Shown here piece after piece: positions 13,476 to 29,458 of a stretch of DNA of 32,000 bases. The translations under genes and the position numbers were made by a program. The notes beneath the pieces were generated by a model that ran no database searches, had not been told where the DNA came from, and was given only the letters and a program-made list of their open reading frames with translations. Each line of letters begins with the position of its first letter. Position 1 is the first letter of the stretch. The stretch covers positions 2,670,001 through 2,702,000 of the forward strand of contig NC_009483.1 of the NCBI RefSeq assembly GCF_000016745.1, given 5' to 3'. This DNA comes from Geotalea uraniireducens Rf4. GTDB lineage: Bacteria; Desulfobacterota; Desulfuromonadia; Geobacterales; Geobacteraceae.

Positions 13476-13853
13476 TTATTTCTCCAGAACCAGCATCGCC
13501 ACGGCAAAATTCCCATCATGGGAAAGAGAGAGAAAACTTTTGCTGAGTTCTGCCTGGGCAAACAATTGTAGCGCCCTGCCGGTGAGCCTCATTTCCGGTT
13601 TGCCGAACTGATTGTTCACCACTTCCATATCCTTCCATGACAAGCCATCGCGAAGGCCTGTACCAAGAGCCTTCAGAAAAGCCTCCTTTGCGGCAAAGCG
13701 AAGCGCATAATGTTGGGCGCTGTGCTTCTTTGCAGCACAATAATCCAGCTCAAGAGGCGTGAAAATCCGCTGCAAGAGCGCCACATTCCCATCATGAACA
13801 AAACGCTCGAAGCGTGAGATATCAACTATATCGACGCCAGTGCCGAAGATCAT
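13476..13853 (-). CDS. acpS: Holo-[acyl-carrier-protein] synthase
   Basis: Begins [16 protein letters not shown] and contains [14 protein letters not shown] and SLSHDG. The start forms an ATGA overlap with the upstream ORF's stop. Confidence 0.9.
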
Positions 13854-14083
13854 CTTAAATTCCACTCTCCCATGACATCCCCATTAAACAAGCTTTTCAA
13901 CAACCTGATCTTATACCATGAATTAACAATCTGTTCAAAATCAATTTCCCCACCCGGGACGAATAAATTACAATCATCCGTATCCGGCGCCAATCTTTCA
14001 ATCCGCCCTGATTCCACGTCATTGAACAGATTGTAGCAGATAGTTTTCCAGATTACCGCCCATTTCAACATCAATGTCGGCAT
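13850..14083 (-). CDS. Hypothetical 77-aa protein
   Basis: Support is only the open frame and the ATGA translational-coupling overlap with acpS. I recognise no motif. Confidence 0.35.
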
Positions 14084-14195
14084 TCTTTACAATTAATTTC
14101 ATTAATATGTTTTTGTGTTTCAATTGATATTTTTGAAGGATTTATTGATGGGAATAACCACAAAAGTAAACTTTAGTAAAGCAGGAACAGACCAT

Positions 14196-14897
14196 TTACT
14201 TCACAAACGAAGATTTAAGCAGGATATGCTTATTATCGAGAATTTCAATCTCCCGCTCCTTCACGAAGCGATTCAAAAGTCTCGTTACCGTTTCGCGGGA
14301 GACATTTGCGTATCCTGCGATATCTTTATGCAGCAGTTTCAGCGCTATTATGATACCCCGCTCATCCATTACGCCGTTAATTTTACCAAGCTGCTCCAAA
14401 ACTGCCCTGACCCTCTGCTCTGCACTTGCAAAACTCATTACCTTGAGCATCAACCATGATTCTCTCAATCGGGTACACAGCATGGCTACAAGCTGGTGCA
14501 TCACTTTCTCGTCTTTCAACAAATATTTTTCAAAGTTTTCCCGGGCGATCAACTGCACACGAGAATCCTCCATGGCAATAACGGTTGCAGGTGCAGTTTT
14601 TCCATCGAGCAGAGCCATTTCACCAAAAAAATCACCCTTTTTATGGATGGCAAGTATATGCTCCTTCCCATCTTCGCTCGTCTGCACGACTTTTACTTTA
14701 CCGGAAGAAACAATGTACATATACCTTTGAGTGTCCTCCTCCCACAGAATTACATTGTTTTTGTTGAATTTTTTTTCTTCTATAATATTTCTTAAATCAG
14801 TTAATTGTTCCTCTGATAGACATTCGAAGATCGGAATAGTTTTTATGAAATTATATGATTTCAACTGATCAGATTTAGCTATGCCGGATACACTCAT
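14196..14897 (-). CDS. Crp/Fnr-family transcriptional regulator (CRP-type recognition helix, atypical nucleotide pocket)
   Basis: 233 aa. Has a cNMP-binding-like beta-roll (FFGEMALLDGKTAPATVIA) and a C-terminal HTH, GYANVSRETVTRLLNRF, with the R-E-x-x-x-R pattern. Confidence 0.85.
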   Translation of the reverse strand: MSVSGIAKSDQLKSYNFIKTIPIFECLSEEQLTDLRNIIEEKKFNKNNVILWEEDTQRYMYIVSSGKVKVVQTSEDGKEHILAIHKKGDFFGEMALLDGKTAPATVIAMEDSRVQLIARENFEKYLLKDEKVMHQLVAMLCTRLRESWLMLKVMSFASAEQRVRAVLEQLGKINGVMDERGIIIALKLLHKDIAGYANVSRETVTRLLNRFVKEREIEILDNKHILLKSSFVK

Positions 14898-14994: not shown

Positions 14995-15010
14995 AGCAAT
15001 TAAATTGCCA
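14995..15010 (-). promoter_or_regulatory. Candidate sigma-54 (-24/-12) promoter for the Crp-like gene
   Basis: The minus strand reads TGGCAATTTAATTGCT, against the consensus TGGCAC-N5-TTGCW. The GG and GC dinucleotides are correctly spaced. It lies about 98 nt upstream of the ATG at 14897. Confidence 0.5.
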
Positions 15011-15134: not shown

Positions 15135-16535
15135 TCACAACTGGGCTTGCTTTGCTTGCAAGGCTGAAAGCTTGTTAAGATTATATTTTTTCATGAGATC
15201 ATAAAAAGTAGGTCTACTCACACCCAGCGCTTCAGCTGCCTTTGCAATATTTCCTTCCTGGCGCTCCAGGGCATAAATAATCATTTCTCTCTCAACTCTG
15301 TCCCTTGCATCCTTCAATGTCACAACATCTGCTACAGGAATCTGCTGCTGTAGCGGCATGTCTGTGAAACCAAGATCATCGGGTTCCAGCAATAACGAAT
15401 CAGACATGATAACAGCTCGTTGCACCCTGTTTTCCAGCTCCCTGACATTACCCGGCCACCGGTGTGATTCGAGCAGATTGATGGTACCCGTGCTGAAACC
15501 CTTCACTTTTTTGTTGAATTCTTCAGTCGATCTTTTCAAAAAGAGATTCGCCAGGAGCACGATGTCATCGCCACGCTCACGCAATGGAGGAAGGTTGATA
15601 TTGATTACCGCTATCCTGTAATACAGGTCTTCCCTGAAAATTCCCTCCTGAATCGCCTTTGAAATATCAATATTGGTTGCAGAGATTATCCTGGCATCCA
15701 CAGCGATGTCCTCCCGCCCACCGACTCGCTGCAACACTTTTTCCTGAAGAAAACGAAGCAGCTTAACCTGGAGGTTGCCGGGCAATTCACCTATTTCATC
15801 GAGAAACAGGGTTCCCTTGTGCGCATACTCCGCTTTTCCTTGTACACGTGCATGAGCTCCGGTAAAGGCGCCTTTTTCAGCACCGAATAATTCAGATTCA
15901 AGCAAATTTTCCGGTATCGCACCGCAGTTTATGGGAATAAAAGGGCCTTCATTTCTAAGACTCATGGTGTGCAGAGCCCTGGCAACCAGTTCTTTGCCCG
16001 TCCCGCTCTCACCGGTAACAAACACGGCAATATCAGATGATGCAACCTTTCTTATGGTAGAAAACACCTGCAACATCTGGGGACAATGTCCGATTATGCC
16101 GCCAAATCCTGTACCGTTATGCTCCAGTGCGGTTTGCAGCCGATTGTTTTCCTCTTCAATGTCCAGTAAATAAAATGCCCTGTTGATAATGACCTTCAAT
16201 TCATTCATATCGATCGGCTTTTGATAGTAATCATACGCACCGAGTTGCACAGCCCTCAGGGCATTGCTTCGTCCGTCATTACCTGTGATCACAATGACTT
16301 TGGCAGCAGGAACATGCCTGAGTATCTCTTTCAGACACCTAAAACCTTCCTCCATACCATCTTCATCGGGGGGCAAGCCAAGATCCAGTGTGATAACTTT
16401 AGGATTGTGCTTCTTGAACAATGATAGTGCCTCACCACCATCGCAAGCAAACAGAACGTCATATTCTTTTCCAAGCCCCCATTTAAGCTGCTTGCGAATA
16501 TCGCTATCATCATCAACGATCAAGAGCTTTTCCAT
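15135..16535 (-). CDS. prsR: Sigma-54-dependent response regulator, PrsR-like (PEP-CTERM-box type)
   Basis: Has a receiver domain (LLIVDDD...[12 protein letters not shown]...KVIVITGN...GAYDYYQKP), an AAA+ sigma-54 interaction domain ([20 protein letters not shown]) and a C-terminal Fis-type HTH. The start is ATG at 16535 or 16538, after AGGAG. Confidence 0.82.
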
Positions 16536-16556
16536 CATACTCTCCTGTTTTCTCAC

Positions 16557-18602
16557 TTAATCCTTAGGCAACCAGACTGTAAAAGTTGTTCCTATGCCGA
16601 GATCACTACTTACTTCGATTCTGCCGTTATGCGCTTCCACAATCTGTTTGCTCTGATAGAGTCCAATACCCAACCCTTTCTTCTTTGTAGTCTTGAATGG
16701 AGTAAAAAGATATTCATGCAAAAAATCGGGAGCGATACCGCAGCCGTCATCAAGAACCTTTATGAAAGCCAGGTTGCCGGCCCCTACTTCAACAGAGATC
16801 TGCCCCCTGCCGTCGGTTGCCTCCACGGCATTCAAGAGCAAATTCAATGCAACCTTTTGCAACTCTTCGCGATCAACCATTGCGATCACGCTGTTACCTC
16901 TGATACATATTTTCCCACCGTCAACAATTTCAGCGGTCTCCTTTACCAATTGTAACAAATCTGCCGGTTCCCGATTTAACGAATGCTTTTCCGGGATAAT
17001 TTTAAGCCGTGAAATAAGAGCCTTCATTTTTGCTACCGTGTTGCCGAGCGATTCGATCATATCCTGCTGAAATTCCGTTTCGGACATATAATGACTTGCA
17101 TTGTCCAGGATCAATGAAACCGTATAGACCAGGTTTTTCAGGTCATGGATCACGAATGTTGAAACTTTGCCGAGTGCTTCCATTTCCCGCGCCTGAGCCA
17201 ATTGCTCTGAAAGCCGCAAGTTCAACAGGGCAGATGAAGTTTGGCGCGCCAGAGTTTTCATAAGATCATAGTCTTCGTAGTTATAAACCTCATCCCGATT
17301 TACTGGTTTTCCGAGAACTATGAAACCGTCCATCACGCCGTTTAAAAACAGCGGGATAACAAATGATATGTCGTTCAGCCTGAAAAAGTCCTTACAGTGG
17401 TCGGACGGTTCAAAAATCCCCTCGCCCATATTGACGACCCAGCTCTTTTCCGTCATATGCTCGATGATAGTGTCATCACGGCCAAATTCTACTGCTCGCG
17501 TCTCCATCTCAAGACTTGCAGCTGTTCTAAACAATCTCCGTTCACCATCATAAAGAAACAGGGCGCAGCCACCCATGCCGAAGGTATCAGCATAACCGCA
17601 CAGGATAGACTGTAACAACTCATCGCCGCTATGTGACGAAGATAGGCGATCGGTAAACTGAAGCCATTGAATTCTGTAATCATACTTGTTCTTGTAAAAG
17701 TTCTTATGCAGATGGACTTTAATTTTGCGTTTCACCGTTTCCGAAAGTAGAACGCATATCAGCCCCGCACCTGATAAAAATGCGATAACAATTGCCATGG
17801 TGCGTTGAAACGAGTCTCCGAAATATTTCATCCCCTCGCCCATCAAACCAAGTCCAAGCAGGTAAAGGCTGACAACGACGAGAACAACCGATTTGTAGGC
17901 TAACTGCCGGGATACGGTAACTTTTACTCCGTTGCCCCTGATGAACCTGGAGTATGCCATCATAAAAACAGCAATGATAATAACTACCGATCTACCCGGA
18001 ACCAGATTCATATTGATTGTTCGATAGAGAAGTCCCTGGCTGTAATAAAAAATCAGGAAACTCAGCAAAAAACCGGCGCCTACTATTTCGTACTTGATTT
18101 TCCATCTTGAAGAAACAGATGCGTTTATAAATGTAGCTTCAAGATTGATCAGGGCGATCACCATATAAATCAGCAAGGCAAAGAAGAAAATGAAACCGTA
18201 GTTTCCGAGGAACAACATGCGCTCGGAAATAAAGTCGGGGGAATAAAAAAATAAATTGACTGGTATTGTGATGACTGCCAGTGGGAATAGACAGGCGATA
18301 GCAATGGTTAATCGTTGAGAATTCGGGATTGATTGCACTTTATACAGTCTAGAACAGGTGAGACTAAACAGGAGCCAGGTGATAGGTAGGGTACATTCGG
18401 CAAATAGCGATAATTGCTTCCACAACATGACCCTTTTCGTGTCGTTAATCGATAACAGATCGAATATTTCCAGAGCACATACAGATGTGAGCGCAGCAAG
18501 GTTAGCGTACGAGTAAACATCTCTTTCTCTTTTATTGAGAAGATAAAAAGAGTAAATACAGCAAACCGATATTGCACCTATGGAAAGTATAGTTTGAAAC
18601 AT
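16557..18602 (-). CDS. prsK: Multi-TM sensor histidine kinase, PrsK-like
   Basis: 681 aa. About 8-10 N-terminal TM helices, a GAF-like middle region, an H-box (VIHDLKN), and N and G boxes (LLLNAVEA, DDGCGI, GLGIGL). It lies immediately upstream of prsR. Confidence 0.78.
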   Translation of the reverse strand: MFQTILSIGAISVCCIYSFYLLNKRERDVYSYANLAALTSVCALEIFDLLSINDTKRVMLWKQLSLFAECTLPITWLLFSLTCSRLYKVQSIPNSQRLTIAIACLFPLAVITIPVNLFFYSPDFISERMLFLGNYGFIFFFALLIYMVIALINLEATFINASVSSRWKIKYEIVGAGFLLSFLIFYYSQGLLYRTINMNLVPGRSVVIIIAVFMMAYSRFIRGNGVKVTVSRQLAYKSVVLVVVSLYLLGLGLMGEGMKYFGDSFQRTMAIVIAFLSGAGLICVLLSETVKRKIKVHLHKNFYKNKYDYRIQWLQFTDRLSSSHSGDELLQSILCGYADTFGMGGCALFLYDGERRLFRTAASLEMETRAVEFGRDDTIIEHMTEKSWVVNMGEGIFEPSDHCKDFFRLNDISFVIPLFLNGVMDGFIVLGKPVNRDEVYNYEDYDLMKTLARQTSSALLNLRLSEQLAQAREMEALGKVSTFVIHDLKNLVYTVSLILDNASHYMSETEFQQDMIESLGNTVAKMKALISRLKIIPEKHSLNREPADLLQLVKETAEIVDGGKICIRGNSVIAMVDREELQKVALNLLLNAVEATDGRGQISVEVGAGNLAFIKVLDDGCGIAPDFLHEYLFTPFKTTKKKGLGIGLYQSKQIVEAHNGRIEVSSDLGIGTTFTVWLPKD

Positions 18603-18696: not shown

Positions 18697-20038
18697 GGCT
18701 CTGCAACGAATCAAGTGGGTAGAGGGAATAGCGACTTTAGGTTGAGCTTGCCTGCAACCAGATAAGCCATGCAGATCAAGTTGTCAGGATTCCGATAGCC
18801 TCGTGCCCGAGTTTTGGCTGATTGAATTAGGCTGTTGATGCCCTCAATGAAGCCGCTAGTCAGGCCGCTTTCAAAATGTGCCAGAATGCCATCCCAATGC
18901 TCTTTTACAGATTCGGCCATGTTCTTGATGAGTTGGATTGAGCTTGCGGCGGCTTTCCGATGCCATTTGGTCAACAGGGTTTCTGCCTCCGTTCGGCTTG
19001 AAGCAAAATAGACGTTCTGAAGGTTCAGCTTGTGCATGTAAGCTTCCGTACTCCTTAAGCTTTGACTGGTGATAATGGCATCCAGGCGCTGTTCCTCTTC
19101 CGGTGTCAGGTTCTCTGGATTTTTGAGGAACAGGTTTCTGCTCTTTTTCAGGATTTCAGGAAATAACCTGGCTTCTTGAGCCCTTATCTTACTAAGCTTA
19201 TCGTTCATAAGCTTGATGACGTGGAATTTATCGAAGGTGACCACGGCATGGGGCAACTGCTCTTTGACACCCTTTATGAATGCCTTGGACATGTCAATAG
19301 CAGCGTCTGTGATGCTATCAGGATCGCCGCCATGTGACTTAAGGTCCGCGACGAAGCTCTTGACTGTTTCGTTGTCCTTTCCCGTCGTGCCGAACAAGAG
19401 CTTATGCATGTCGAGGTCGAAGAAGAAGGTGACGAATTTCTCGTCATGACTGCGCCCGGCAAAGGTTTCATCCGCACCGACCCTCTTCACCTCGGAGAAG
19501 TCTTCTGCGGCCCTTGCCTTCTCGACATAGGATTGAATCAACCGCCATAGACGGGTATCGGTAACGGCAAACAGCCTGCTCATGACCTTCACCGGCAAAT
19601 CACGAGCCATGGTCATGGCCAGGGCCTCAAACAGCAGCGTAAATCCTGAGCCTGCGCGAGCCCAGGGTACCTGGACCAACTTCACGCCGCAGTCGCTGTT
19701 AGGGCACTTTACCCGTGGAACACGCGCATGAAGGTAGGCTTCGTACTGGAAGAAATTCAGATGCCGCCACTCTTTCTCCGTGGTGTCATGGACTGGTGAC
19801 AACGTTCCGCAGACCGGACAGGGAAAGGTGGCTCCCCGCTGGAAGTCGATGGTTATGTCCAAACGACTTGACTTCTTGTTGAAGTCAACAGAGGTAACCT
19901 TCCACGGGATGGCAATTCCAAGAGCAGCACCAAAAAGATCTTCAGGATTCATAGCGATTACTAACCTCCAGGCTGAGTGATGGTGGCCTATCTTACATCA
20001 ACCCGGCCCAGGCTACCCACTCAATTCGTCGAGGAGCC
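18697..20038 (-). mobile_element. ISL3-family insertion sequence, apparently intact (1342 bp)
   Basis: Imperfect 26-bp terminal IRs: ggctctgcaacgaatcaagtgggtag (18697-18722) against the reverse complement of ctacccactcaattcgtcgaggagcc (20013-20038). An 8-bp direct target duplication caattaaa sits at 18689-18696 and 20039-20046. It holds a single transposase ORF. Confidence 0.85.
18711..19952 (-). CDS. ISL3-family transposase
   Basis: 413 aa. N-terminal zinc-finger-like CPVCG...CP..C, then a DDE_Tnp_ISL3-like body (GADETF..., FHVIKL...). Confidence 0.88.
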   Translation of the reverse strand: MNPEDLFGAALGIAIPWKVTSVDFNKKSSRLDITIDFQRGATFPCPVCGTLSPVHDTTEKEWRHLNFFQYEAYLHARVPRVKCPNSDCGVKLVQVPWARAGSGFTLLFEALAMTMARDLPVKVMSRLFAVTDTRLWRLIQSYVEKARAAEDFSEVKRVGADETFAGRSHDEKFVTFFFDLDMHKLLFGTTGKDNETVKSFVADLKSHGGDPDSITDAAIDMSKAFIKGVKEQLPHAVVTFDKFHVIKLMNDKLSKIRAQEARLFPEILKKSRNLFLKNPENLTPEEEQRLDAIITSQSLRSTEAYMHKLNLQNVYFASSRTEAETLLTKWHRKAAASSIQLIKNMAESVKEHWDGILAHFESGLTSGFIEGINSLIQSAKTRARGYRNPDNLICMAYLVAGKLNLKSLFPLPT

Positions 20039-20398: not shown

Positions 20399-21847
20399 TT
20401 ACCATGTTACCAGCCCGACCGCTCTTTGCAGGATCAAGCGCGCATCATTTATATCGATAACGCCATCCCCCTGCGGCCGGCTGGATGGATCAAGCGGCCA
20501 GACATCGCCCGTTGACATGATCGACGCTGTTTGCAATGACGGATCCAAGGCAGCACGCAGCACCATCAGGGCATCTGCAATAGCAACAGTGCCGTCACCG
20601 TTCGCATCACCCTTGAGAACCACTGGAGGAGTTACGATATTACTTACCGTTACAGTTACGGCTGTTGCCTGACCGACATTGCCTGCCGCATCGTAGGCTT
20701 TGGCAGTCAGGGTGTAGGAGCCGTTGGCCGCCGAAGCGGTATTCCAGCTGAAGCTGTAGGGGGATGCGGTGTCGGTGGCCATCAGTGAACCGTTCACATA
20801 GAACTCGACCTTGGTCACCCCAACGTTGTCGCCGGAGCTGGCGGTGACCGATGCGGTGCCGCTTACCGTTGCACCGTTTGCCGGCGCGCTGATCGATACC
20901 GTCGGTGCGGTGGTGTCGGCGACCGTGTTGTTTACAGTCACCGTCGCCACGGTGGACTGTCCCACGTTGCCTGCTGCATCGTACGCTTTGGCAACCAAAG
21001 TGTAGCTGCCGTTCGCTACCGCCGCCGTATTCCAGTTATAGCTGTATGGCGCCACATTACCTGCGGACAAAAGCACGCCGTTCGCGTAGAACTCGACCCT
21101 GCCCACCCCGACGTTGTCGCCGGCGCTTGCCGTGATCACCACTGTCCCGCTCACTGTCGTATTGTTGCCGGGTGCCGTCAGGGACACCGTGGGAGCGGTT
21201 GTGTCATTGACGACCGTGACGGTCACAGTGCCCGACTCCCCCACATTGCCGGCGGCGTCGTACGCCTTGCCCATCAACGTATAGCTCCCGGCGGCAAGCG
21301 CTGAGGTGTTCCATGAATAAAGATAGGGAGTAGTCGTGTCCGTGGCCTGCAGTGCCCCATTCACATAGAACTCGACCTTTGTCACCCCGACGTTGTCCGT
21401 GGCGCCGGCAGTGACCGAAACGGTGCCGCTTGCCGCGGCATTGTTGAGCGGGGATGTTAAGGAAACCGTCGGGGGGAGTGATTCAGGTATGGCGACAACG
21501 TTCGAATAGGAGCTTTCCTCGCCGGCAGCGTTGTACGCGGTCACAGCAAAGTAGTAGGCATGGCTCGGGTCGAGGCCGTTGATGGTGGTAGATGTCAGGT
21601 TTTGCACATTGATCGGGGAAGCCCCGCTGGTGGCTCCAGTGCCGCTAAAGGGTTGGGTGGATGAATCCGCCTGGTAATATACCTTATAACCGGTAACGCT
21701 CGGGTCCGTTTCAGGATCCCACTGTAGGGTCACATTGGTTGCAAGGCACGTGGCCTGACCGGCAAAGAAAATGACCAATGCGAATATCATGGCACAGAAT
21801 GATTTGGTTGTAATAAGTTGCCCTCTTGATCCGTTTCCAATATTCAT
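20399..21847 (-). CDS. Secreted FN3 + three Ig-like repeats + C-terminal dockerin-like domain protein
   Basis: Signal peptide MNIGNGSRGQLITTKSFCAMIFALVIFFAGQATCLA, then FN3 (VTLQWDP...GYKVYY...YYFAVTAYN). The unit DNVGVTKVEFYVNG...YDAAGNVG occurs three times. The C-terminus GDANGDGTVAIADALMVL...GDGVIDINDARLILQRAVGL is dockerin-like (Ca-binding). The start ATG at 21845-21847 follows GGGAG. Confidence 0.8.
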   Translation of the reverse strand: MNIGNGSRGQLITTKSFCAMIFALVIFFAGQATCLATNVTLQWDPETDPSVTGYKVYYQADSSTQPFSGTGATSGASPINVQNLTSTTINGLDPSHAYYFAVTAYNAAGEESSYSNVVAIPESLPPTVSLTSPLNNAAASGTVSVTAGATDNVGVTKVEFYVNGALQATDTTTPYLYSWNTSALAAGSYTLMGKAYDAAGNVGESGTVTVTVVNDTTAPTVSLTAPGNNTTVSGTVVITASAGDNVGVGRVEFYANGVLLSAGNVAPYSYNWNTAAVANGSYTLVAKAYDAAGNVGQSTVATVTVNNTVADTTAPTVSISAPANGATVSGTASVTASSGDNVGVTKVEFYVNGSLMATDTASPYSFSWNTASAANGSYTLTAKAYDAAGNVGQATAVTVTVSNIVTPPVVLKGDANGDGTVAIADALMVLRAALDPSLQTASIMSTGDVWPLDPSSRPQGDGVIDINDARLILQRAVGLVTW

Positions 21848-21869
21848 CTTTATCTCCCATCTTACTGGC

Positions 21870-21905
21870 AATAAAAAGCCGTGTTGTGATTTCCCCACAA
21901 CCCGG
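21870..21905 (-). terminator. Leader terminator (expression platform of riboswitch copy 1)
   Basis: The minus strand reads GCCGGGTTGTG-GGGAAAT-CACAACACGGC (10 bp, 1 mismatch) followed by TTTTTATT. It ends about 22 nt before the start codon. Confidence 0.65.
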
Positions 21906-21959: not shown

Positions 21960-22040
21960 ATTTCGGCGACCCGGCTGTCTCGGTGAGACCCTTTAGGCTT
22001 TCCGTCCCATTCTCGCGAATGGTTTAGTATTTTCGTCTAC
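21960..22040 (-). promoter_or_regulatory. GEMM-I (c-di-GMP-I class) riboswitch aptamer, copy 1
   Basis: The minus strand reads GTAGACGAAAATACTAAACCATTCGCGAGAATGGGACGGAAAGCCTAAAGGGTCTCACCGAGACAGCCGGGTCGCCGAAAT. From memory of the V. cholerae Vc2 aptamer it matches AAACCAUUC-GNRA-GAxUGGGACGxAAAGCC ... AGCxGGGUUxCCGA, including the GNRA loop (GCGA) and a CCUAAAG receptor-like segment. Confidence 0.75.
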
Positions 22041-22060: not shown

Positions 22061-22103
22061 GTTATAGCCGAAAGCCGCAGATCGACATGTGACAGAAATC
22101 ACT
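22061..22103 (-). promoter_or_regulatory. Class-II-type promoter: CRP-like box plus -10 (copy 1)
   Basis: The box at 22088-22103 reads TGTGACAGAAATCACT (+) and AGTGATTTCTGTCACA (-). Exactly 21 nt separate it from the minus-strand TATAAC at 22061-22066, which centres the box at about -41.5. Confidence 0.55.
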
Positions 22104-22171: not shown

Positions 22172-22214
22172 CAGATATCACAGCAGGAATACAAAGAATG
22201 TGATGCAAATCACA
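22172..22214 (-). promoter_or_regulatory. Second, perfect CRP-like palindrome with the same 21-nt spacing to a weak -10
   Basis: TGTGATGCAAATCACA (22199-22214) is a perfect TGTGA-N6-TCACA. The minus-strand TATCTG at 22172-22177 lies 21 nt downstream. Confidence 0.4.
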
Positions 22215-22359: not shown

Positions 22360-24387
22360 TCACTTCCTAACCGTTATGGACGTTGTGTCCATATTGTTGG
22401 CGGCATCGAAGGCATTCACCGTAATCACATGTGACCCTCTCGCGTAGGAATTCGTATTCCAGGTCCATGCCAAGGTATTGGAGGAGGTCGTTACTTTCAA
22501 CACATTGTCGATGTAGAGCGCCATTTTGGTGACCCCGACGTTATCGGAAGCCGAGGCTTTGATTGTGACGTTCGATCGGACTCTCGAACCCGCTGCGGGT
22601 GAGTTGATAGAAACGGTCGGCGGCGTGGTATCGCTTACAAGGATATTGACCGTGGCGCTGACACTTGACGACACTTTTCCTGTCGCGTCTTTTGCCCAGG
22701 CATAGGCAGTATTCGTTCCAGTGCTGCCGAAGGTAAACGAGGTGTTAGGGGAGCTCAACCAATCGCAGTTAGTCGCCGCGTTGGTGGACGTGACACAATA
22801 TGCCGTTACACCCACGTTATCAGTCGCGGCGAATGCTGTAACAGGAATTGTTAAACTGCTTGAGGTCGCGGGCATGGTAAATATTGTCACAGTGGGTGGC
22901 GTGGTGTCAGCCGCCGTACTGTTTACCGTCACTGTCACATTGCCGGACTGCCCCACATTGCCCGCCGCGTCATACGCCTTGGCCGTCAGGATGTAGGTGC
23001 CGTTTGCCACTGCAGTGGCATTCCAGCTGACGGTGTACGGCGAGGCGGTGTCGGTGGCTTGCAGGACGCCGTTCACGTAGAACTCGACCCTGGTCACACC
23101 CACGTTGTCCGAAGCGGAAGTGGAGACCGTAACCGTGCCGCTCACATTCGTATTGCCGGCCGGCGAGCTGATAGAAACGGTCGGCGGCGTGGTGTCGCTT
23201 ACAAGGATATTGACCGTGGCGCTGACACTTGACGACACTTTTCCTGCCGCGTCTTTTGCCCAGGCATAGGCAGTTTTCGTTCCAGTGCTGCCGAAGGTAA
23301 ACGAGGTGTTAGAGGAGCTCAACCAATCGCAGTTAGTCGCCGCGTTGGTGGACGTGACACAATATGCCGTTACACCCACGTTATCAGTCGCGGCGAATGC
23401 TGTAACAGGAATTGTTAAACTGCTTGAGGTCGCGGGCATGGTAAATGTCGTCACAGTGGGTGGCATGGTGTCAGCCGCAGTATTGTTTAACGTCACCGTT
23501 ACATTGCCGGACTGTCCCACGTTGCCCGCCGCGTCATACACCTTGGCCGTCAGGGTGTAGCCGCCATTCGCAACCGATGCCGTATTCCAGTTATAGCTGT
23601 ACGGCGCCACATTACCTGCGGACAAGAGTACTCCGTTCCCATAGAACTCGACTTTGCTCACCCCTACGTTGTCGCCGGCGCTTGCAGTGATTGCCACTGT
23701 CCCGCTCACCGTAGCGTTGTTACCAGGCGCTGTCAGGGACACCGTGGGAGGAGTCGTGTCATTGACGACCGTTACGGAAACATTGCTCGACTGATCGACA
23801 TTACCCGCAGCGTCATATGCCTTGGCCATTAATGTATAGTTACCGGCTGCCAGCGATGAGGTGTTCCACGAATAAATGTATGGGGTCGATGTATCCGTGC
23901 CATTAAGAACGCCGTTCACATAGAACTCGACCTTGGTCACTCCGACGTTGTCGCCGGCGCTGGCGGTGACCGAAAGCGTTCCACTCGCGGTTGTATTATT
24001 GGCTGGGTAACTTAAGGAAACCGTCGGGAGGACCGATTCGGGGACGGTGACTATATTCGAATAGGAACTTTCCACGCCGGAGGTATCATAAGCGCTTACC
24101 GCAAAGTAGTAAGTACGCCCAGGGTCAAGATTGCTGACGGTCGCGGTCGTCTGGTTGCTAACATCCATTGGCGACCCGGTACCGTTAAAAGGAGTTGTGG
24201 ATGAATCCGCCTGGTAATAAACCTTGTAACCCGCAAGGTTGGCATCAGTGTTCGGATTCCACTGGAGGGCCACATTGGTCGCGAAGCACGTTGCTTGGCC
24301 GGCCAGAAAAAAAGCCGACAGGAATATCGTGACCAGGAATAATTTGGACACGAGATGCCCTTTTCTTGTTGCTTTTCCAATACTCAT
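22360..24387 (-). CDS. Secreted FN3 + multi Ig-like repeat protein (paralog of 20399-21847, no dockerin)
   Basis: Signal peptide MSIGKATRKGHLVSKLFLVTIFLSAFFLAGQATCFA, then FN3, then alternating DNVGV...YDAAGNVG Ig-like units and a second Cys-pair domain (TAFAATDNVGVTAYCVTSTNAATNCDW). The start ATG at 24385-24387 follows GGAGAGAG. Confidence 0.8.
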   Translation of the reverse strand: MSIGKATRKGHLVSKLFLVTIFLSAFFLAGQATCFATNVALQWNPNTDANLAGYKVYYQADSSTTPFNGTGSPMDVSNQTTATVSNLDPGRTYYFAVSAYDTSGVESSYSNIVTVPESVLPTVSLSYPANNTTASGTLSVTASAGDNVGVTKVEFYVNGVLNGTDTSTPYIYSWNTSSLAAGNYTLMAKAYDAAGNVDQSSNVSVTVVNDTTPPTVSLTAPGNNATVSGTVAITASAGDNVGVSKVEFYGNGVLLSAGNVAPYSYNWNTASVANGGYTLTAKVYDAAGNVGQSGNVTVTLNNTAADTMPPTVTTFTMPATSSSLTIPVTAFAATDNVGVTAYCVTSTNAATNCDWLSSSNTSFTFGSTGTKTAYAWAKDAAGKVSSSVSATVNILVSDTTPPTVSISSPAGNTNVSGTVTVSTSASDNVGVTRVEFYVNGVLQATDTASPYTVSWNATAVANGTYILTAKAYDAAGNVGQSGNVTVTVNSTAADTTPPTVTIFTMPATSSSLTIPVTAFAATDNVGVTAYCVTSTNAATNCDWLSSPNTSFTFGSTGTNTAYAWAKDATGKVSSSVSATVNILVSDTTPPTVSINSPAAGSRVRSNVTIKASASDNVGVTKMALYIDNVLKVTTSSNTLAWTWNTNSYARGSHVITVNAFDAANNMDTTSITVRK
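22605..23732. repeat. In-frame tandem duplication, period 564 bp (188 aa), inside the CDS
   Basis: Positions 22605-22990 against 23169-23554 are near-identical, with only scattered single-base differences by eye. The antisense ORFs 22721-22996 and 23285-23560 in the track are offset by exactly 564 nt and are nearly identical. Confidence 0.85.
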
Positions 24388-24409
24388 CTTTCTCTCTCCT
24401 TCTCTTGGC

Positions 24410-24446
24410 AATAAAAAGCCGCGTTGTGATTTTCTCAACAACCCGG
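24410..24446 (-). terminator. Leader terminator (expression platform of riboswitch copy 2)
   Basis: On the minus strand, GCCGGGTTGT...ACAACGCGGC is followed by TTTTTATT. It is homologous to 21870-21905. Confidence 0.6.
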
Positions 24447-24492
24447 CTTGCGATATTTTATGAATAAAAAAAGAAGGCCGGGCCATCTAAGC

Positions 24493-24573
24493 ATTTCGGC
24501 GACCTGGCTGTCTCGGTGAGACCCTTTAGGCTTTCCGTCCCATTCTCGCGAATGGTTTAGTATTATCGTCTAC
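24493..24573 (-). promoter_or_regulatory. GEMM-I riboswitch aptamer, copy 2
   Basis: The minus-strand sequence is nearly identical to copy 1. Differences seen are A to T in the 5' tail and GCCGGG to GCCAGG. Confidence 0.75.
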
Positions 24574-24603: not shown

Positions 24604-24646
24604 GTTATAGCTGAAGACCGTTACCTTATATGTGACAGAAATCACT
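24604..24646 (-). promoter_or_regulatory. Class-II-type promoter: CRP-like box plus -10 (copy 2)
   Basis: The box TGTGACAGAAATCACT at 24631-24646 is identical to copy 1. Exactly 21 nt separate it from the minus-strand TATAAC at 24604-24609. Confidence 0.55.
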
Positions 24647-24718
24647 AAACAATATTAGAAAATCATGTTCCGCTCTTTCTTAACTTTTTCGAAACCGGCC
24701 CATTTATACCAGGTTGGT

Positions 24719-24797
24719 ATTTCGGTGACCCGACTGCATCAAGGAGACCATCCGTATGCTTTCCCCCCTTCGCAAATGGTCTTGAATTATCAGCGAG
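24719..24797 (-). promoter_or_regulatory. Degenerate/orphan GEMM-I-like leader copy (copy 3)
   Basis: The minus-strand 3' half GCAGTCGGGTCACCGAAATACCAACCTGGTATAAATGGGCCGG closely matches copy 1. The 5' half (AAGACCATTTGCGAAGGGGGGAAAGC) has lost P2 complementarity. It lies upstream of the copy-2 promoter, not inside that transcript. Confidence 0.4.
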
Positions 24798-27342: not shown

Positions 27343-27385
27343 TGTGACTTGAATCACAAAGGGCAACTATGGATTATGCTATACA
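27343..27385 (+). promoter_or_regulatory. Class-II-type promoter: CRP-like box plus -10 (copy 4)
   Basis: The perfect palindrome TGTGACTTGAATCACA at 27343-27358 is separated by exactly 21 nt from TATACA at 27380-27385. Confidence 0.6.
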
Positions 27386-27408: not shown

Positions 27409-27489
27409 GTAGACGATAATACTAAACCATCCGCAAGGATGGGGCGGAAAGCCTAAAGGGTCTCACTGAGACAGCCGGGTTGCCGAAAT
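27409..27489 (+). promoter_or_regulatory. GEMM-I riboswitch aptamer, copy 4
   Basis: Reads GTAGACGATAATACTAAACCATCCGCAAGGATGGGGCGGAAAGCCTAAAGGGTCTCACTGAGACAGCCGGGTTGCCGAAAT. P2 shows compensatory changes relative to copies 1 and 2 (CCATTC/GAATGG becomes CCATCC/GGATGG), with GNRA loop GCAA. Confidence 0.78.
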
Positions 27490-27524
27490 GCCAGATTGGT
27501 TTCGGCCCCGGCTATTTTTGTTTT
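27473..27524 (+). terminator. Terminator overlapping the 3' strand of aptamer copy 4
   Basis: AGCCGGGTTGCCGAAA-tgccagattgg-TTTCGGC-CCCGGCT is followed by ATTTTTGTTTT. Its 5' arm is the aptamer's conserved 3' segment. Confidence 0.65.
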
Positions 27525-27623: not shown

Positions 27624-28574
27624 ATGAAGAAACGTTTAGGCCCATTTTTTGTGATTTTTTCAGCAGTTTATTTTTTCTGGGTCAACCCGGGTGTTGCCGG
27701 CACAACTCTCTTCCAGGAAAGTTTTGAAGATGGGAATTTCAGCACGAGAGGCTGGTACGATAATACCAGCCCGAAACTGTCCAGTGTGGAACATGTGGCC
27801 AACAGCGCCAAGTCCCTGGAATTTCATTTTGCAAAAGGCGCCGTCACTCCCGATAATGCCGGTGCGTCGATAAGAAAAAAGTTTACCGAAAGCGACTCGG
27901 TGTATGTCAGCTATTACATAAAACACAGCGCAAGCTGGGTGGGATCGGGCGTGGCGTACCATCCGCACCAGTTTTACCTTCTGACCAATCTTGAGGGCGA
28001 CTGGTCGGGACTGATCCCTACGCACATGACGGCCTACATCGAGGAAAATGGCGGGAACTCGGTCGTGGCCATCCAGGACAGCTTGAACGTCAATCTGGCG
28101 AACGTGGGCAAGGATTTGACCGCAGTCACCGAGAACCGGGCGATCGGTGGATGCAACGGAGACAGTGACGGCTACGGCAATGGGGATTGCTATGCCAGCG
28201 GCAGCGGCTATGCCAATGGCAAGCAGTGGAAGTCGGGCACAGCGCTCTTCTCCAACACCGCCGGTGCGTATTACAAAAACGACTGGCACCTGGTCGAAAC
28301 CTACCTCAAGCTGAACAGTATCGTCAATGGCAAAGGCGCCAAGGATGGCATTCTGCAGCAATGGTATGACGGAAAACAGGTTATGAACTACACCAATGTC
28401 GTCTTCCGTACCGCGCAGAATCCGAACATGAAATTCAATCAGCTTCTGATTGGTCCCTATATCGGCGTAGGCTCGCCGGTAGATCAGACCTTCTGGGTGG
28501 ACAACCTGGTGGTGGCGACAACACCCCCCGTCAAAATTTCACCTCCGCAAAACCTGAGGATCATAAGTCGATAG
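27624..28574 (+). CDS. Secreted beta-rich protein, ConA-like/jelly-roll fold guess (possible polysaccharide lyase/hydrolase-like)
   Basis: 316 aa with an AGGAG RBS and signal peptide MKKRLGPFFVIFSAVYFFWVNPGVAG. It is a distant paralog of the next ORF (shared W..E.YLKL...G....W..GK.V ... VD..V..T..P). The functional call is weak. Confidence 0.6.
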   Translation: MKKRLGPFFVIFSAVYFFWVNPGVAGTTLFQESFEDGNFSTRGWYDNTSPKLSSVEHVANSAKSLEFHFAKGAVTPDNAGASIRKKFTESDSVYVSYYIKHSASWVGSGVAYHPHQFYLLTNLEGDWSGLIPTHMTAYIEENGGNSVVAIQDSLNVNLANVGKDLTAVTENRAIGGCNGDSDGYGNGDCYASGSGYANGKQWKSGTALFSNTAGAYYKNDWHLVETYLKLNSIVNGKGAKDGILQQWYDGKQVMNYTNVVFRTAQNPNMKFNQLLIGPYIGVGSPVDQTFWVDNLVVATTPPVKISPPQNLRIISR

Positions 28575-28633
28575 TTTAAAATCATTCCATAGAAAGCCCT
28601 GGAATGTACCAAACGTGCTGTAAAGGAGAATGT

Positions 28634-29458
28634 ATGATAGCTGGAACCAGAAAAATGGTAACTGTACTTGTATCGATAGCATGCCTGAGTGTTGCGGGTC
28701 AGGCATTTGCATGGACGAAGACCGTAAATTTTGATAACGGAACGAATGGGGCTCTTGCAAATGGCGCCGTTGGTTTTGACTACGCCGGCAGCAAGACGAC
28801 CATCTCCGGCGATATGGCTGTCAGTGGCGCCAAGTCGGCTAAAATGGTCTGGGCCAAAGGTGACCCCGGCTGGAACCTTCAGCATGGCGAGATCAACTTC
28901 CCCGCACCGGTAAAAAATGGCGGAGAGGTGTGGATCAGGGGCTACTACTATTTTGCGAATCCCTGGAGCTTTCTTTCCAACAACGGCGATTACAGCGGCA
29001 TAAAAATCATGCGGCTGGCTACGGATGTTGGCGGTTGGCACTCAATTTTCTCGGTGTTCAGTCCGAACATTAGCGCTTCCAACGAAATGGAGCAGGTACA
29101 GATAGATACAAGCGCGCCCTTTATTATCGGCGCCTGGCAAAGCCTGGAGATGTATCTGAAGCTGTCTCCCACCCAGGGGATATTCAGGATCTGGCAGAAC
29201 GGCAAACTGGTCTTTGAGGACCTCAATCACAAAACCATTACCAGCTCAAACGGATACGTTTCAATGGCGTCGGTCATGTCCGTATGGAACAATAACGTCG
29301 GACAGTCGCAGACTCAGTACGTGGACGAGTTCGTCATCACCACCGACCGCCCTGCCCAGGTGGACAGCAAGGGCAATCCGATGATCGGGCCGATTAATGG
29401 CACGAGTCCGGCCACTCTCCCCCCTCCTACCGGCCTGCGAGTAACAGCCACTAAATAG
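28634..29458 (+). CDS. Secreted beta-rich protein, paralog of 27624-28574
   Basis: The start is placed at ATG 28634, after AGGAG at 28624-28628. Signal peptide MIAGTRKMVTVLVSIACLSVAGQAFA. Same C-terminal architecture as the preceding ORF. The ORF track starts at 28604. Confidence 0.6.
   Translation: MIAGTRKMVTVLVSIACLSVAGQAFAWTKTVNFDNGTNGALANGAVGFDYAGSKTTISGDMAVSGAKSAKMVWAKGDPGWNLQHGEINFPAPVKNGGEVWIRGYYYFANPWSFLSNNGDYSGIKIMRLATDVGGWHSIFSVFSPNISASNEMEQVQIDTSAPFIIGAWQSLEMYLKLSPTQGIFRIWQNGKLVFEDLNHKTITSSNGYVSMASVMSVWNNNVGQSQTQYVDEFVITTDRPAQVDSKGNPMIGPINGTSPATLPPPTGLRVTATK

Follow-up and report, generated by a model that had tools for sequence, protein, structure and literature searches.

An altered phosphate-binding cassette and a co-varying tryptophan in a CRP-type regulator of Geotalea uraniireducens, a probable activator of riboswitch-bearing surface-protein genes

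CRP-family proteins that work without an effector are by now a recognised class (PMC12040651). In DdrI, Tyr113 fills the adenine site of the neighbouring subunit, mimics cAMP and pre-activates the dimer; in CRP, hydrophobic substitutions of T127/S128 give the cAMP-independent CRP* proteins (PMC11253593). Other members of the family are linked to cyclic dinucleotides. In Clp, the contacts with c-di-GMP are made by D70, R154, R166 and D170 (PMC6637768), and for Bcam1349 of Burkholderia no defined c-di-GMP binding site was found in the literature searched. MrpC of Myxococcus is a CRP-like protein with no known ligand; it binds DNA alone, its gene is EBP-driven, and it is tied to c-di-GMP/cGAMP levels (PMC8844925). 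The combination of a CRP site and a dinucleotide-sensing RNA on one gene has been described for V. cholerae gbpA, a surface-attachment (adhesin) gene with a cAMP-CRP promoter and the Vc1 GEMM-I element (PMC4545359).

The window analysed here, a stretch of 32,000 nucleotides of Geotalea uraniireducens Rf4, carries a crp-like gene whose product is compared with these systems below. Taken as a whole, the product is read as a cNMP-independent class II activator with a Trp-plugged pocket of the DdrI/CRP* kind, the expression of which would be tied to PrsR and sigma-54; we put the probability of this complete reading at about 0.5.

The sensor domain and the clade to which it belongs

The gene and the parts of its sensor domain that matter for the argument are the following.

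14196..14897, minus strand: crp-like gene, CRP/FNR superfamily, 'TxPAT/Trp' clade; intact ORF of 233 aa
14574..14624, minus strand: equivalent of the phosphate-binding cassette, GEMALLDGKTAPATVIA, residues 92-108, placed by alignments
14589-14594, minus strand: A102-P103, in place of CRP R82-S83 in two independent alignments
14595-14600, minus strand: K100-T101, 97-99% conserved, in the 'TxPAT/Trp' clade only
14454..14456, minus strand: Trp148 of the C-helix, at the CRP Ser128 / DdrI Tyr113 position, co-varying with loss of the Arg-Ser clamp

Membership of the CRP/FNR superfamily was confirmed by a Pfam search of the 233-aa protein, which identified an N-terminal cNMP-type beta-roll (cNMP_binding, PF00027, residues 42-128, 7.6e-26) and a C-terminal Crp-type winged HTH (HTH_Crp_2, PF13545, residues 161-227, 3.2e-9). 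The AlphaFold2 monomer model has the CRP fold, with a mean pLDDT of 86.7. Its Foldseek matches (GlxR, Mtb CRP, Clr and NtcA) were generic to the CRP family and offered no clue to a ligand; their TM of about 0.5 is ascribed to the domain orientation in the monomer model. Among the NCBIfam models, the protein scored below the cut-offs of both the CRP equivalog NF008732 (68.6 bits vs 266) and the FNR model NF008365 (72.9 vs 228). Since C26 and C141 are its only cysteines, it has no FNR-type cluster of N-terminal and central Cys for a [4Fe-4S] centre, and FNR-like Fe-S sensing was ruled out. HcpR was rejected as an identity, the Geobacter HcpR using a TTGAC-type signal (PMC545781); one Nitrospirota homolog lies 4 kb from hcp, and in the other loci hcp is not adjacent.

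Residue equivalences were taken from an alignment with E. coli CRP and Clp, the Clp sequence having been verified against PDB 3IWZ. CRP G71/E72 corresponds to G92/E93, R82 to A102, S83 to P103 and A84 to A104, and the same register was obtained in a HMMER alignment to T. thermophilus CRP (4EV0), in which 'gktapat' stands opposite 'egersas'. No displaced Arg was found in the cassette, the sole basic residue of which is K100. Of the two residues that read the adenine N6 in CRP, Thr127 is represented by S147 (Ser or Ala across the clade) and Ser128 by W148 (98% Trp). CRP R123 corresponds to R143, which like G92/E93 is invariant in the clade, and the CRP-S62 position is Ala83 (88% Ala). Because the Arg-Ser pair has given way to Ala/Ser-Pro, the sensor domain would be unable to clamp the phosphate of a cyclic nucleotide, and canonical binding of cAMP or cGMP is very probably absent. 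These results agree with the initial annotation, which had reported the exchange of the Arg-Ser clamp for Ala-Pro and the missing FNR-type N-terminal cysteines, and which had named a correctly placed Arg elsewhere in the cassette as one observation that would speak against it. Its view that the effector is unlikely to be cAMP or cGMP holds insofar as canonical clamping is lost. The co-varying Trp148 at the CRP-S128 position had been overlooked there.

The altered cassette is widely shared. An x-P-A-T sequence is present in 119 of the 120 best homologs, at 56-100% identity, and the same number have Ser, Ala or Gln followed by Pro at the CRP R82-S83 positions, which makes the alteration neither chance nor decay. 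When clamp and 148-position are counted together in these 120 proteins, 118 have xP with Trp, one has AP with Leu, one has RS with Leu, and none has RS with Trp; thus, in the aligned sequences, a missing Arg-Ser pair goes almost without exception with a Trp at the CRP-S128 position. The one close homolog that has regained R-S is also without the Trp, implying that clamp and Trp are alternative states. All 29 'xPA' loci have Trp148 together with an EE(D/E)T loop, and the 56 loci of the sister clade keep R-S with Asp, Asn or Ser at the 148-position. Judged by these comparisons, the cassette change marks a widespread clade, so far uncharacterised, with members in Geobacterales, Nitrospirota, Acidobacteriota and Thermodesulfobacteriota, and this clade would descend from canonical cNMP-binding ancestors.

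It could be argued that cAMP or cGMP is still bound, in a non-canonical manner, with Lys100/Thr101 and Arg143 taking the place of the clamp: the ribose 2'-OH binder G92/E93 and R143 are both invariant, and K100 (97% conserved) lies two residues ahead of the lost Arg. However, the phosphate in cNMP-binding domains is bound almost universally by the cassette Arg, the hydroxyl of Ser/Thr is lost with Pro103, and the homolog in which R-S has reappeared has lost its Trp. Moreover, Trp148 takes the place of an adenine-N6 reader and, by analogy with DdrI, would crowd the base site (PMC11253593). Such binding is therefore considered very improbable.

What the pocket does instead is suggested by the position of Trp148, which would sit where CRP Ser128 and DdrI Tyr113 enter the adenine site of the neighbouring subunit. 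There it would fill the pocket and lock the C-helix in the active form, and the output of such an effector-independent regulator would follow the amount of protein made. By this analogy a Trp-plugged, effector-independent regulator is favoured only tentatively, at somewhat less than even odds. The plug of DdrI also uses an Arg at the CRP-S62 position, which is Ala83 here.

The cassette itself is strongly conserved in the clade, D98, G99, K100, T101, P103, A104 and T105 being kept at 94-100%, and with K100/T101 constrained in this clade only it looks, in sequence, more like an anion-binding site than an abandoned pocket. A ligand other than a cNMP is possible. Effector switching is typical of the superfamily, in which NtcA, CooA, CprK and PrfA have non-nucleotide effectors or cofactors, and CooA and NtcA are among the structural matches of the product. 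A carboxylate or phosphate metabolite, a redox signal, or a cofactor (metal or haem) ligated by His85, Cys141 or Met60 would fit the constraint on the cassette and on K100/T101, as well as the clade-specific invariance of His85, Cys141, Met60, Tyr61 and Trp148. Against this, no known cofactor motif matches, and the neighbouring genes include no conserved enzyme that would point to a metabolite. By alignment, the haem ligands of the CooA and DNR type do not appear to coincide with the clade-specific His: CooA His77/Cys75 presumably align to the G92-M94 region and DNR His187 presumably to Tyr196. A non-nucleotide effector is accordingly regarded as rather unlikely.

TGTGA boxes, leaders and riboswitches

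The recognition helix, the boxes that it would read and the leaders and genes downstream of them are listed below; the boxes are given without strand, and their transcription start sites (TSSs) were predicted from -10 hexamers.

14274..14300, minus strand: recognition helix SRETVTRLL, residues 200-208, with R201/E202/R206 equivalent to CRP R180/E181/R185
27343..27358: perfect box TGTGACTTGAATCACA, centred at -41.5 from a TATACA -10 hexamer; predicted to drive the 27411 aptamer and the 27624 gene
22088..22103: box with one mismatch, centred at -41.5 from TATAAC on the minus strand; predicted to drive the 22038 aptamer and the 21898 gene
24631..24646: box with one mismatch, of the same sequence as the 22088 box, centred at -41.5 from TATAAC on the minus strand; predicted to drive the 24571 aptamer and the 24486 gene
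22199..22214: perfect box without a good -10 hexamer, 111 bp upstream of the 22088 box
27411..27487, plus strand: GEMM-I (c-di-GMP-I) aptamer with A at the Vc2-G20 position (RF01051, 49.4 bits)
27473-27513: terminator hairpin which, with a U-tract, follows the 27411 aptamer, from folding
21962..22038, minus strand: GEMM-I aptamer of the A20 type (RF01051, 44.6 bits)
24495..24571, minus strand: GEMM-I aptamer of the A20 type (RF01051, 43.8 bits)
20399..21898, minus strand: secreted fn3/Ig-repeat protein with a dockerin-like C-terminus, candidate target
22360..24486, minus strand: secreted fn3/Ig-repeat protein, paralogous to the 20399..21898 product, candidate target
27624..29458, plus strand: two secreted proteins of unknown family (316 and 284 aa), candidate targets

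In the alignment, the R-E-x-x-x-R pattern of the helix is 99-100% conserved in the clade, and Arg180 has been linked to TGTGA rather than TTGA signals (Rodionov et al. 2004; PMC545781). Since the DNA-reading residues of CRP are kept, the clade is taken to recognise TGTGA-N6-TCACA. Boxes of this form with at most one mismatch occur five times in the 32-kb window against 0.85 expected, a count reached in 0 of 100 shuffles. The centres of such boxes lie at -41.5 or -42.5 from TATAAC, TATACA, TACAAT or TAAAAT hexamers in six promoters of four genomes, the geometry being observed in the window, in G. daltonii and in Nitrospirota and other loci; at two further loci the end of the box is followed, after 21-22 nt, by a -10-like hexamer. 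No full sigma-70 promoter (-35/-10 pair) was found in the box-carrying leader regions. Of 11 close clade loci in other genomes, 6 have a box no more than 400 bp downstream of the regulator gene (P ~1e-9), compared with none of 70 distant homologs. In Nitrospirota-type loci the box target is a small membrane peptide, of which no homolog was found in the 32-kb window. Autoregulation of the crp-like gene was rejected, as its 237-bp upstream region contains no box with up to two mismatches.

DNA binding and activation by the 14196-14897 product are predicted on these grounds: it would act as a class II activator, with the site at -41.5 substituting for the -35 element, and the sequence evidence makes a TGTGA-box class II activator likely. 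The promoters that the clade serves would drive genes for proteins of the envelope and the cell surface. The initial annotation had proposed both a CRP-type, TGTGA-specific helix and a link to the boxes at 22-27 kb. The former is upheld by the conservation of R-E-x-x-x-R and the tie between Arg180 and TGTGA, the latter by the enrichment in the window, the -41.5 position and the boxes near clade genes elsewhere.

The boxes at 22-27 kb could, nevertheless, be read by a paralog from the clade whose gene lies in another part of the genome, the gene at 14196-14897 controlling other promoters. At least three diverged Geobacterales lineages of the clade have the same R-E-T-x-x-R helix (L012, 54% identity; L013, 53%; L014/L015, 45-47%), so that the window boxes could belong to another member. 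The L012 and L013 regulators directly adjoin targets with box and riboswitch, and here a distance of 7-13 kb and an IS element separate the crp-like gene from the boxes. Against this stand the G. daltonii ortholog (78-81% identity), which is found 2.3 kb from a -41.5 box before the orthologous fn3 gene, and the window itself, in which there is no other CRP-family gene within the 32 kb. A paralog at the boxes is held to be rather unlikely. It concerns the assignment of targets only and fits any effector model.

All three aptamers exceed the RF01051 gathering score of 35. The expression platform was missed by a simple terminator scan and revealed by folding, in which the terminator of the 27411 leader overlaps the 3' strand of the aptamer. 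A further riboswitch at about 24698-24790 on the minus strand was rejected; even at E = 1, Rfam gave no match to this element, which is therefore regarded as a degenerate remnant. The L013 ortholog of the 22360..24486 gene (53% identity) has the same leader with box and GEMM-I. The orthologous fn3 target in G. daltonii has a box in front, and no riboswitch was found in its leader. The 14196-14897 product probably activates genes for surface proteins whose leaders also contain riboswitches for cyclic dinucleotides. Among aptamers of the A20 type, some are bispecific. By the rule that A at the Vc2-G20 position marks GEMM-Ib (PMC6140456), the three aptamers of the window are, from their A20 signature, of the GEMM-Ib (3'3'-cGAMP) type. 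Such leaders would work as anti-termination ON switches. With an activator site and an ON riboswitch on each leader, we propose that the regulator (for initiation) and the dinucleotide (for elongation) are both needed.

From this arrangement it is a short step to the suggestion that the pocket, or another surface of the protein, binds a cyclic dinucleotide (c-di-GMP or 3'3'-cGAMP), and that one messenger gates initiation and anti-termination in a coherent feed-forward. CRP-family c-di-GMP receptors are known in Clp and Bcam1349, and in three Geobacterales genomes GEMM-I-type aptamers follow box promoters. The clade-specific, conserved K100/T101/W148/H85 could hold a phosphate and stack a base. 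In a crude phmmer screen, GGDEF/EAL genes were found near 4 of 29 clade loci vs 0 of 56 sister-clade loci (Fisher P = 0.012), as the immediate neighbour in L022, L088 and L090, but the statistic rests on these four loci. The motifs RxxxR, RxxD and W[FLM][TS]R are not evident among the clade-specific positions. Furthermore, the box promoters driven by clade members of Nitrospirota and other origin have no riboswitch, yet the pocket residues of these members are the same, which makes a taxonomically narrow, cGAMP-specific role unlikely. The initial annotation had cited Clp and Bcam1349 as precedents for c-di-GMP and had suggested that, if the same held here, this one messenger would act at both steps. 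The Clp precedent fails at the residue level, because none of the four Clp contacts is conserved: D70, R154, R166 and D170 align to E75, V153, A165 and Q169, positions that are variable or hydrophobic in the clade, and a Clp-like c-di-GMP site was rejected. As for the messenger, the A20 signature is that of cGAMP-type GEMM-Ib, so that the RNA does not point to c-di-GMP as the signal for initiation and elongation alike. Overall, a dinucleotide-binding regulator is held to be unlikely. The more specific proposal, a new class of cyclic-dinucleotide-responsive CRP-type activators, unrelated to Clp and with a remodelled pocket in which K100/T101 would take the phosphate and W148/H85 the base, is considered quite unlikely. 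The GGDEF neighbours and the coupling to riboswitches are hints of a link to dinucleotide signalling.

Expression of the regulator and the prsK/prsR genes

If the Trp-plugged, effector-independent reading is right, regulation would have to be sought in the production of the protein, and the genes upstream of it are informative in this respect.

15135..16556, minus strand: prsR, PEP-CTERM-box sigma-54-dependent response regulator, directly upstream of the crp-like gene (TIGR02915, 672.9 bits vs cut-off 502.6)
16557..18602, minus strand: prsK, histidine kinase of the XrtA/PEP-CTERM system (TIGR02916, 598 bits vs cut-off 300)
14995..15010, minus strand: sigma-54-type -24/-12 element TGGCAATTTAATTGCT, candidate promoter of the crp-like gene, in the 237-bp prsR-crp spacer

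The element TGGCAATTTAATTGCT is the sole exact sigma-54 match in the window, where 0.26 would be expected per 32 kb, and it is a single motif match. The prsR-crp order is the same in G. daltonii, and in the closest relatives (L007 and L001) the gap between the two genes is near zero. With one mismatch allowed, sigma-54 sites were found at 3 of 28 clade loci vs 1 of 56 sister-clade loci, and conservation of the promoter throughout the clade was rejected on these counts; the link to PrsR is therefore claimed for Geobacteraceae only. There, production of the regulator appears to be tied to the adjacent PEP-CTERM PrsK/PrsR system, and PrsK/PrsR together with sigma-54 would set the expression of the crp-like gene, either through an operon or through the sigma-54 promoter.

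Significance and comparison with described systems

CRP-family proteins that ignore cAMP are already known; what is found here is a large, cross-phylum clade with a coupled three-residue switch, in which Arg becomes Ala or Ser, Ser becomes Pro and the residue at the S128 position becomes Trp. The helix that reads DNA is frozen, and so is much of the cassette. The switch provides an easy sequence rule by which thousands of 'cAMP-binding' regulators could be re-annotated, and the clade offers a natural experiment in the conversion of a cNMP domain to one of another kind. For the relatives of Geobacter, it would supply the missing promoter-level input for genes with cGAMP/c-di-GMP riboswitches, a class II site standing before each aptamer. 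With the gene of the activator apparently tied to PrsK/PrsR of the PEP-CTERM system, the logic by which surface-protein and biofilm genes are expressed becomes directly testable. Were the dinucleotide reading true, one messenger in Geobacterales would license both the initiation and the riboswitch anti-termination of adhesin genes, a protein-plus-RNA feed-forward loop; if it were true for cGAMP, the protein would be the first transcription-factor receptor of this molecule.

The product shares with E. coli CRP the two-domain fold, the R180/E181/R185 residues, G71/E72 and R123, and the promoters of the window resemble E. coli class II CRP promoters in having TGTGA-N6-TCACA at -41.5 and no -35 element. 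It differs in that R82-S83 is replaced by Ala/Ser-Pro and S128 by Trp, and dependence on cAMP is not expected.

DdrI of Deinococcus, SdrP of Thermus, CrpPg and CrpGv are effector-independent CRP-family regulators that bind CRP-type sites. The protein is similar to DdrI in having a bulky aromatic residue at the CRP-S128 position (Tyr113 in DdrI, Trp148 here), but DdrI keeps the cassette Arg (Arg73, against Ala/Ser102 here), and its plug is anchored by Arg55 at the S62 position, which is Ala83 here. Sequence identity to regulators of the DdrI type is low, and the 'TxPAT/Trp' clade is hence taken to be independent of them.

With Clp and Bcam1349 the product has in common the CRP fold, the TGTGA-type helix (SREMAGR in Clp) and, putatively, the control of extracellular or biofilm factors and links to c-di-GMP signalling. 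Unlike the 14196-14897 product, the Xanthomonas Clp retains the cassette Arg (R98), and its DNA binding is inhibited by c-di-GMP. MrpC, a developmental master regulator, offers a precedent for a ligand-less CRP-like protein with an EBP-driven gene; the consensus of its binding sites differs from the TGTGA boxes described here.

The arrangement of the target genes is most similar to gbpA, which also combines a site for a CRP-type activator with a cyclic-dinucleotide riboswitch on a single surface-protein gene. There, canonical cAMP-CRP is at work and two clearly different signal molecules are read, whereas here the cNMP clamp is missing, the aptamers are of the A20 type, and the architecture is repeated on at least three genes and in three genomes.

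Cassette substitution and the clade that carries it

The regulator under study has the following gene:

14196..14897 (-), crp-like gene of the CRP/FNR family, 233 aa

The protein matches the cNMP_binding domain (PF00027, 7.6e-26) at residues 42-128 and the Crp-type HTH (PF13545, 3.2e-9) at residues 161-227, and reaches none of the NCBIfam equivalog cut-offs (FNR 72.9 vs 228; CRP 68.6 vs 266; NtcA 62.1 vs 245). Its AlphaFold2 model, built with 55 homologs, shows an ordinary CRP fold with a mean pLDDT of 86.7, and the PDB structures most similar to it are those of GlxR, M. tuberculosis CRP, Clr, NtcA and T. thermophilus CRP. The gene is AT-rich (GC 41% vs ~52% in flanking housekeeping genes). 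The 330-bp stretch downstream of it (13866-14195) holds only a doubtful 77-aa ORF (13850-14083), and a 144-aa lipoprotein-like gene lies at the matching spot in Geotalea daltonii.

The initial annotation had described a protein with Ala-Pro replacing the Arg-Ser pair of the phosphate cassette and lacking an FNR-type Cys cluster. Both strings that it quoted were found, GEMALLDGKTAPATVIA at residues 92-108 and SRETVTRLL at residues 200-208, and the cluster is indeed absent, the sole cysteines being C26 and C141. The protein was aligned by MAFFT with E. coli CRP, Xanthomonas Clp (verified as PDB 3IWZ) and 120 homologs. The numbering of the E. coli CRP sequence agrees with the residues quoted in PMC11253593. 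In this alignment, G71/E72 of CRP correspond to G92/E93, R82 to A102, S83 to P103, A84 to A104, R123 to R143, T127/S128 to S147/W148 and R180/E181/R185 to R201/E202/R206. An identical register was given by the HMMER pairwise alignment to T. thermophilus CRP (4EV0). Since the two registers agree and no Arg occurs elsewhere in the cassette, where K100 is the only basic residue, the Ala-Pro observation is correct.

At E <= 1e-10, 1923 homologous proteins were retrieved; of the named ones, that of G. daltonii FRC-32 is closest (81% identity). Among the best 120 of the 1923 (56-100% identity, Nitrospirota and other MAGs included), 119 carry x-P-A-T in place of the canonical R-[ST]-A-T; on this alignment the substitution marks a clade and does not reflect decay. 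Searching GTDB species genomes added 80 loci with homologs, and loci were sorted by pairwise alignment into those with x-Pro-Ala (xPA) and those keeping Arg-Ser-Ala (RSA). The 29 xPA loci (38-88% identity) come from Geobacter, Geomonas, a Pelobacter MAG, Syntrophaceae, Thermodesulfobacteriota, Nitrospirota and Acidobacteriota, and the 56 loci that retain R-S-A (33-40% identity) mainly from Ignavibacteria and Bacteroidota. From this distribution, the xPA state was probably derived from an ancestral canonical clamp. The two groups differ consistently at M60, Y61, H85, P103 (with Ala/Ser 102), C141, W148, G181, L188/T189 and H190.

W148, a C-helix residue equivalent to CRP Ser128, is 98% conserved in the MAFFT alignment of 120 homologs, and co-varies with loss of the clamp. 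Trp was found there in 28/28 xPA versus 0/56 RSA loci aligned for position comparison. In the 120 close homologs, the pairs of clamp and residue 148 were (xP,W) in 118, (AP,L) in one, (RS,L) in one and (RS,W) in none, so that the sole sequence with an R-S clamp has Leu rather than Trp. In the structure of DdrI, Tyr113 occupies the same Ser128 position and fills part of the neighbouring protomer's anti-cAMP pocket, mimicking cAMP; hydrophobic substitutions at T127/S128 yield cAMP-independent CRP* proteins (PMC11253593). Effector-independent CRPs are a recognised class, comprising SdrP, DdrI, CrpPg and CrpGv (PMC12040651). By analogy, W148 would plug a remodelled pocket, with room provided by the small residues Ala83, Ala/Ser102 and Pro103, and the plug would pre-activate the dimer. 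Within the xPA clade K100 and T101 reach 97-99% conservation, whereas both vary among sister-clade loci. The strong constraint on these two residues and on the other cassette positions suggests that something may still bind at the cassette.

TGTGA boxes and probable target genes

Boxes of the form TGTGA-N6-TCACA with at most one mismatch occur five times in the window versus 0.85 expected, a number reached in 0/100 shuffles; at up to two mismatches there was no enrichment (16 sites vs 13 expected). Four of the five fall in three intergenic gaps. The boxes starting at 27343, 22088 and 24631 are each followed, at a distance of exactly 21 nt, by a TATACA or TATAAC hexamer; this spacing places their centres at -41.5, the class II position, relative to start sites predicted from the -10 hexamers. 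A consensus scan of two window leader regions found no complete -35/-10 promoter, which fits activator-dependent promoters. The remaining intergenic box lacks a convincing -10 hexamer in both directions and could be either an orphan or a class III-like tandem site further upstream:

22199-22214, perfect box TGTGATGCAAATCACA, 111 bp upstream of the 22088 box

The link between clade and box comes from loci in other genomes. Within the 400 bp that follow the regulator stop codon, 6/11 close clade loci have a box with at most one mismatch (background 0.029 boxes per kb, binomial P ~1e-9); for distant homologs the figure is 0/70. In each of the six the box ends 21-22 nt ahead of a TATAAT-like hexamer. 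Arg180 is known to accompany the TGTGA signal (Rodionov et al. 2004). The proposed match between the CRP-type helix and the TGTGA boxes at 22-27 kb is supported by residue equivalence, box enrichment and the clade-locus boxes. HcpR was rejected as the identity of the protein, since the Geobacter HcpR signal is of the TTGAC type (Rodionov et al. 2004). The window boxes could instead be served by another clade member, as same-helix paralogs are present in Geobacterales (loci L012, L014 and L015). The crp-like protein itself probably activates these promoters, which precede surface-protein genes and are also gated by cGAMP-type riboswitches.

The genes behind the clade-locus boxes encode envelope or secreted proteins. 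They are listed with their window and G. daltonii (L001) counterparts:

L003 10832-11062, L005 10950-11189 and L029 7061-7300, conserved membrane peptide of 76-79 aa behind a class II box
L029, HU-like protein
L008, DegP-like protease
L012 6887-8656, secreted subtilisin-like protease behind a perfect box and an aptamer
L013 6831-8873(-), fn3/Ig-repeat protein
window 20399-21898(-) and 22360-24486(-), secreted riboswitch-controlled targets with fn3 and repeated Ig-like domains
L001 7799-8377, G. daltonii homolog of the fn3 targets

In G. daltonii, 2.3 kb separate the ortholog of the regulator from a box centred at -41.5 that precedes this fn3 protein, which has a dockerin-like C-terminus and is homologous to the two large window targets. 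A double 'GDxNGDGxVxIxDA' motif (dockerin-like) ends both it and the 20399 protein. No PEP-CTERM sorting signal was found in the fn3/Ig targets of the window, L001 or L013, though PEP-CTERM regulators adjoin. The membrane peptide, from Nitrospirota-type genomes and encoded downstream of the clade regulator, has an N-terminal TM segment, GGGG and the pattern ...KADSLKEE...WTG.K...; it has no Pfam match and no homolog within the window. It directly follows the regulator in L003 and L005, and in L029 follows the HU-like gene in an apparent shared operon.

Riboswitch coupling and the effector

In the window, a c-di-GMP-I aptamer (RF01051; 49.4, 44.6 and 43.8 bits, gathering score 35) follows each of the three class II promoters, 52-59 nt past the box end:

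27411-27487(+), GEMM-I aptamer, A at the Vc2 G20 position
21962-22038(-), GEMM-I aptamer, A at the Vc2 G20 position
24495-24571(-), GEMM-I aptamer, A at the Vc2 G20 position
27473-27513, terminator hairpin and U-tract after the 27411 aptamer

The unpaired nucleotide 5' of P1 is thus A in 3/3, the signature of cGAMP-sensing GEMM-Ib, some members of which are bispecific (PMC6140456). Folding of the 27411 leader gave a strong hairpin, with AUUUUUGUUUU after it, whose 5' arm is formed by the aptamer 3' strand; because the terminator shares this strand, the leader is an anti-termination ON switch. The cGAMP riboswitch of Geobacter GSU1761, reported to be activating, behaves in line with it (PMC8835794). 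Upstream of the 24631 box, a degenerate aptamer with expression platform, including 'CCGAAAUACCAACCUGGUAUAAAUGGGCC', was seen by eye (24698-24790, minus strand); Rfam yielded nothing for it up to E = 1, and it is probably a remnant of a duplicated fn3 gene leader.

The same layout was found beside clade regulators in two further Geobacterales genomes. L013 has a one-mismatch box, then an A20 GEMM-I aptamer and an fn3 ortholog. The other aptamer is a c-di-GMP-I-GGC variant (RF03167, 66.7 bits) that retains G at the G20 column:

L012 (Geobacter sp. MAG), perfect box 6667-6682, TATAAT and aptamer 6746-6820, directly after the clade regulator gene

It had been proposed that one second messenger gates both initiation and elongation. 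Since the layout recurs in L012 and L013, the two-step gate is real as an architecture; a single shared messenger is unlikely. A cyclic dinucleotide as effector of the crp-like protein is unlikely. GGDEF/EAL genes flank 4/29 xPA versus 0/56 RSA loci (Fisher P = 0.012), which lends it weak support, and PilZ and MshEN genes are also close by in L005. A GGDEF or GGDEF-EAL gene immediately adjoins the clade regulator in three unrelated MAGs:

L088 4206-5975, 25 bp from the regulator on the same strand
L090 5429-5923, 164-aa protein without a GG[DE]EF motif
L022 6727-8802(-)

Against a cGAMP-specific role, identical pocket residues occur in clade members of phyla whose box promoters have no riboswitch. 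The suggested analogy with Clp fails at residue level: its c-di-GMP contacts D70, R154, R166 and D170 (PMC6637768) align to E75, V153, A165 and Q169, positions at which the clade does not conserve Asp or Arg. Moreover, Clp keeps the cassette Arg where the crp-like protein has Ala, and is therefore no model for its loss.

Proposed upstream control and known systems

The genes prsK (TIGR02916, 598 bits) and prsR (TIGR02915, 673 bits) immediately precede the crp-like gene, and both are also found ahead of the ortholog in G. daltonii. There and in L007 (88% identity) no more than ~50 bp separate prsR from the regulator, a spacing that points to co-transcription. In the window, the spacer holds the following site:

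14995-15010 (-), exact sigma-54 -24/-12 consensus match TGGCAATTTAATTGCT in the AT-rich 237-bp prsR-crp spacer, correct strand

No other exact match occurs in the 32-kb window (0.26 expected). Because PrsR is a sigma-54 enhancer-binding protein, production of the crp-like protein would depend on PrsK/PrsR. Another clade locus, L090, lies among PEP-CTERM, PrsT-like and sigma-54 response-regulator genes. An ISL3-family transposase (18711-19952, minus strand; NF033550, 318 bits) lies between prsK and the box/riboswitch targets, and its insertion may have split an ancestral regulator-target cluster.

Within the CRP/FNR superfamily, the protein belongs to a clade that lacks the cNMP clamp, bears the Trp and has CRP-type DNA specificity. 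A functional precedent for a PrsR-driven crp-like gene is MrpC: this CRP-like regulator is ligand-less, and the enhancer-binding protein MrpB drives its promoter. Control at both steps is known from V. cholerae gbpA, where cAMP-CRP and the Vc1 element act on one gene and the two signals are different molecules.
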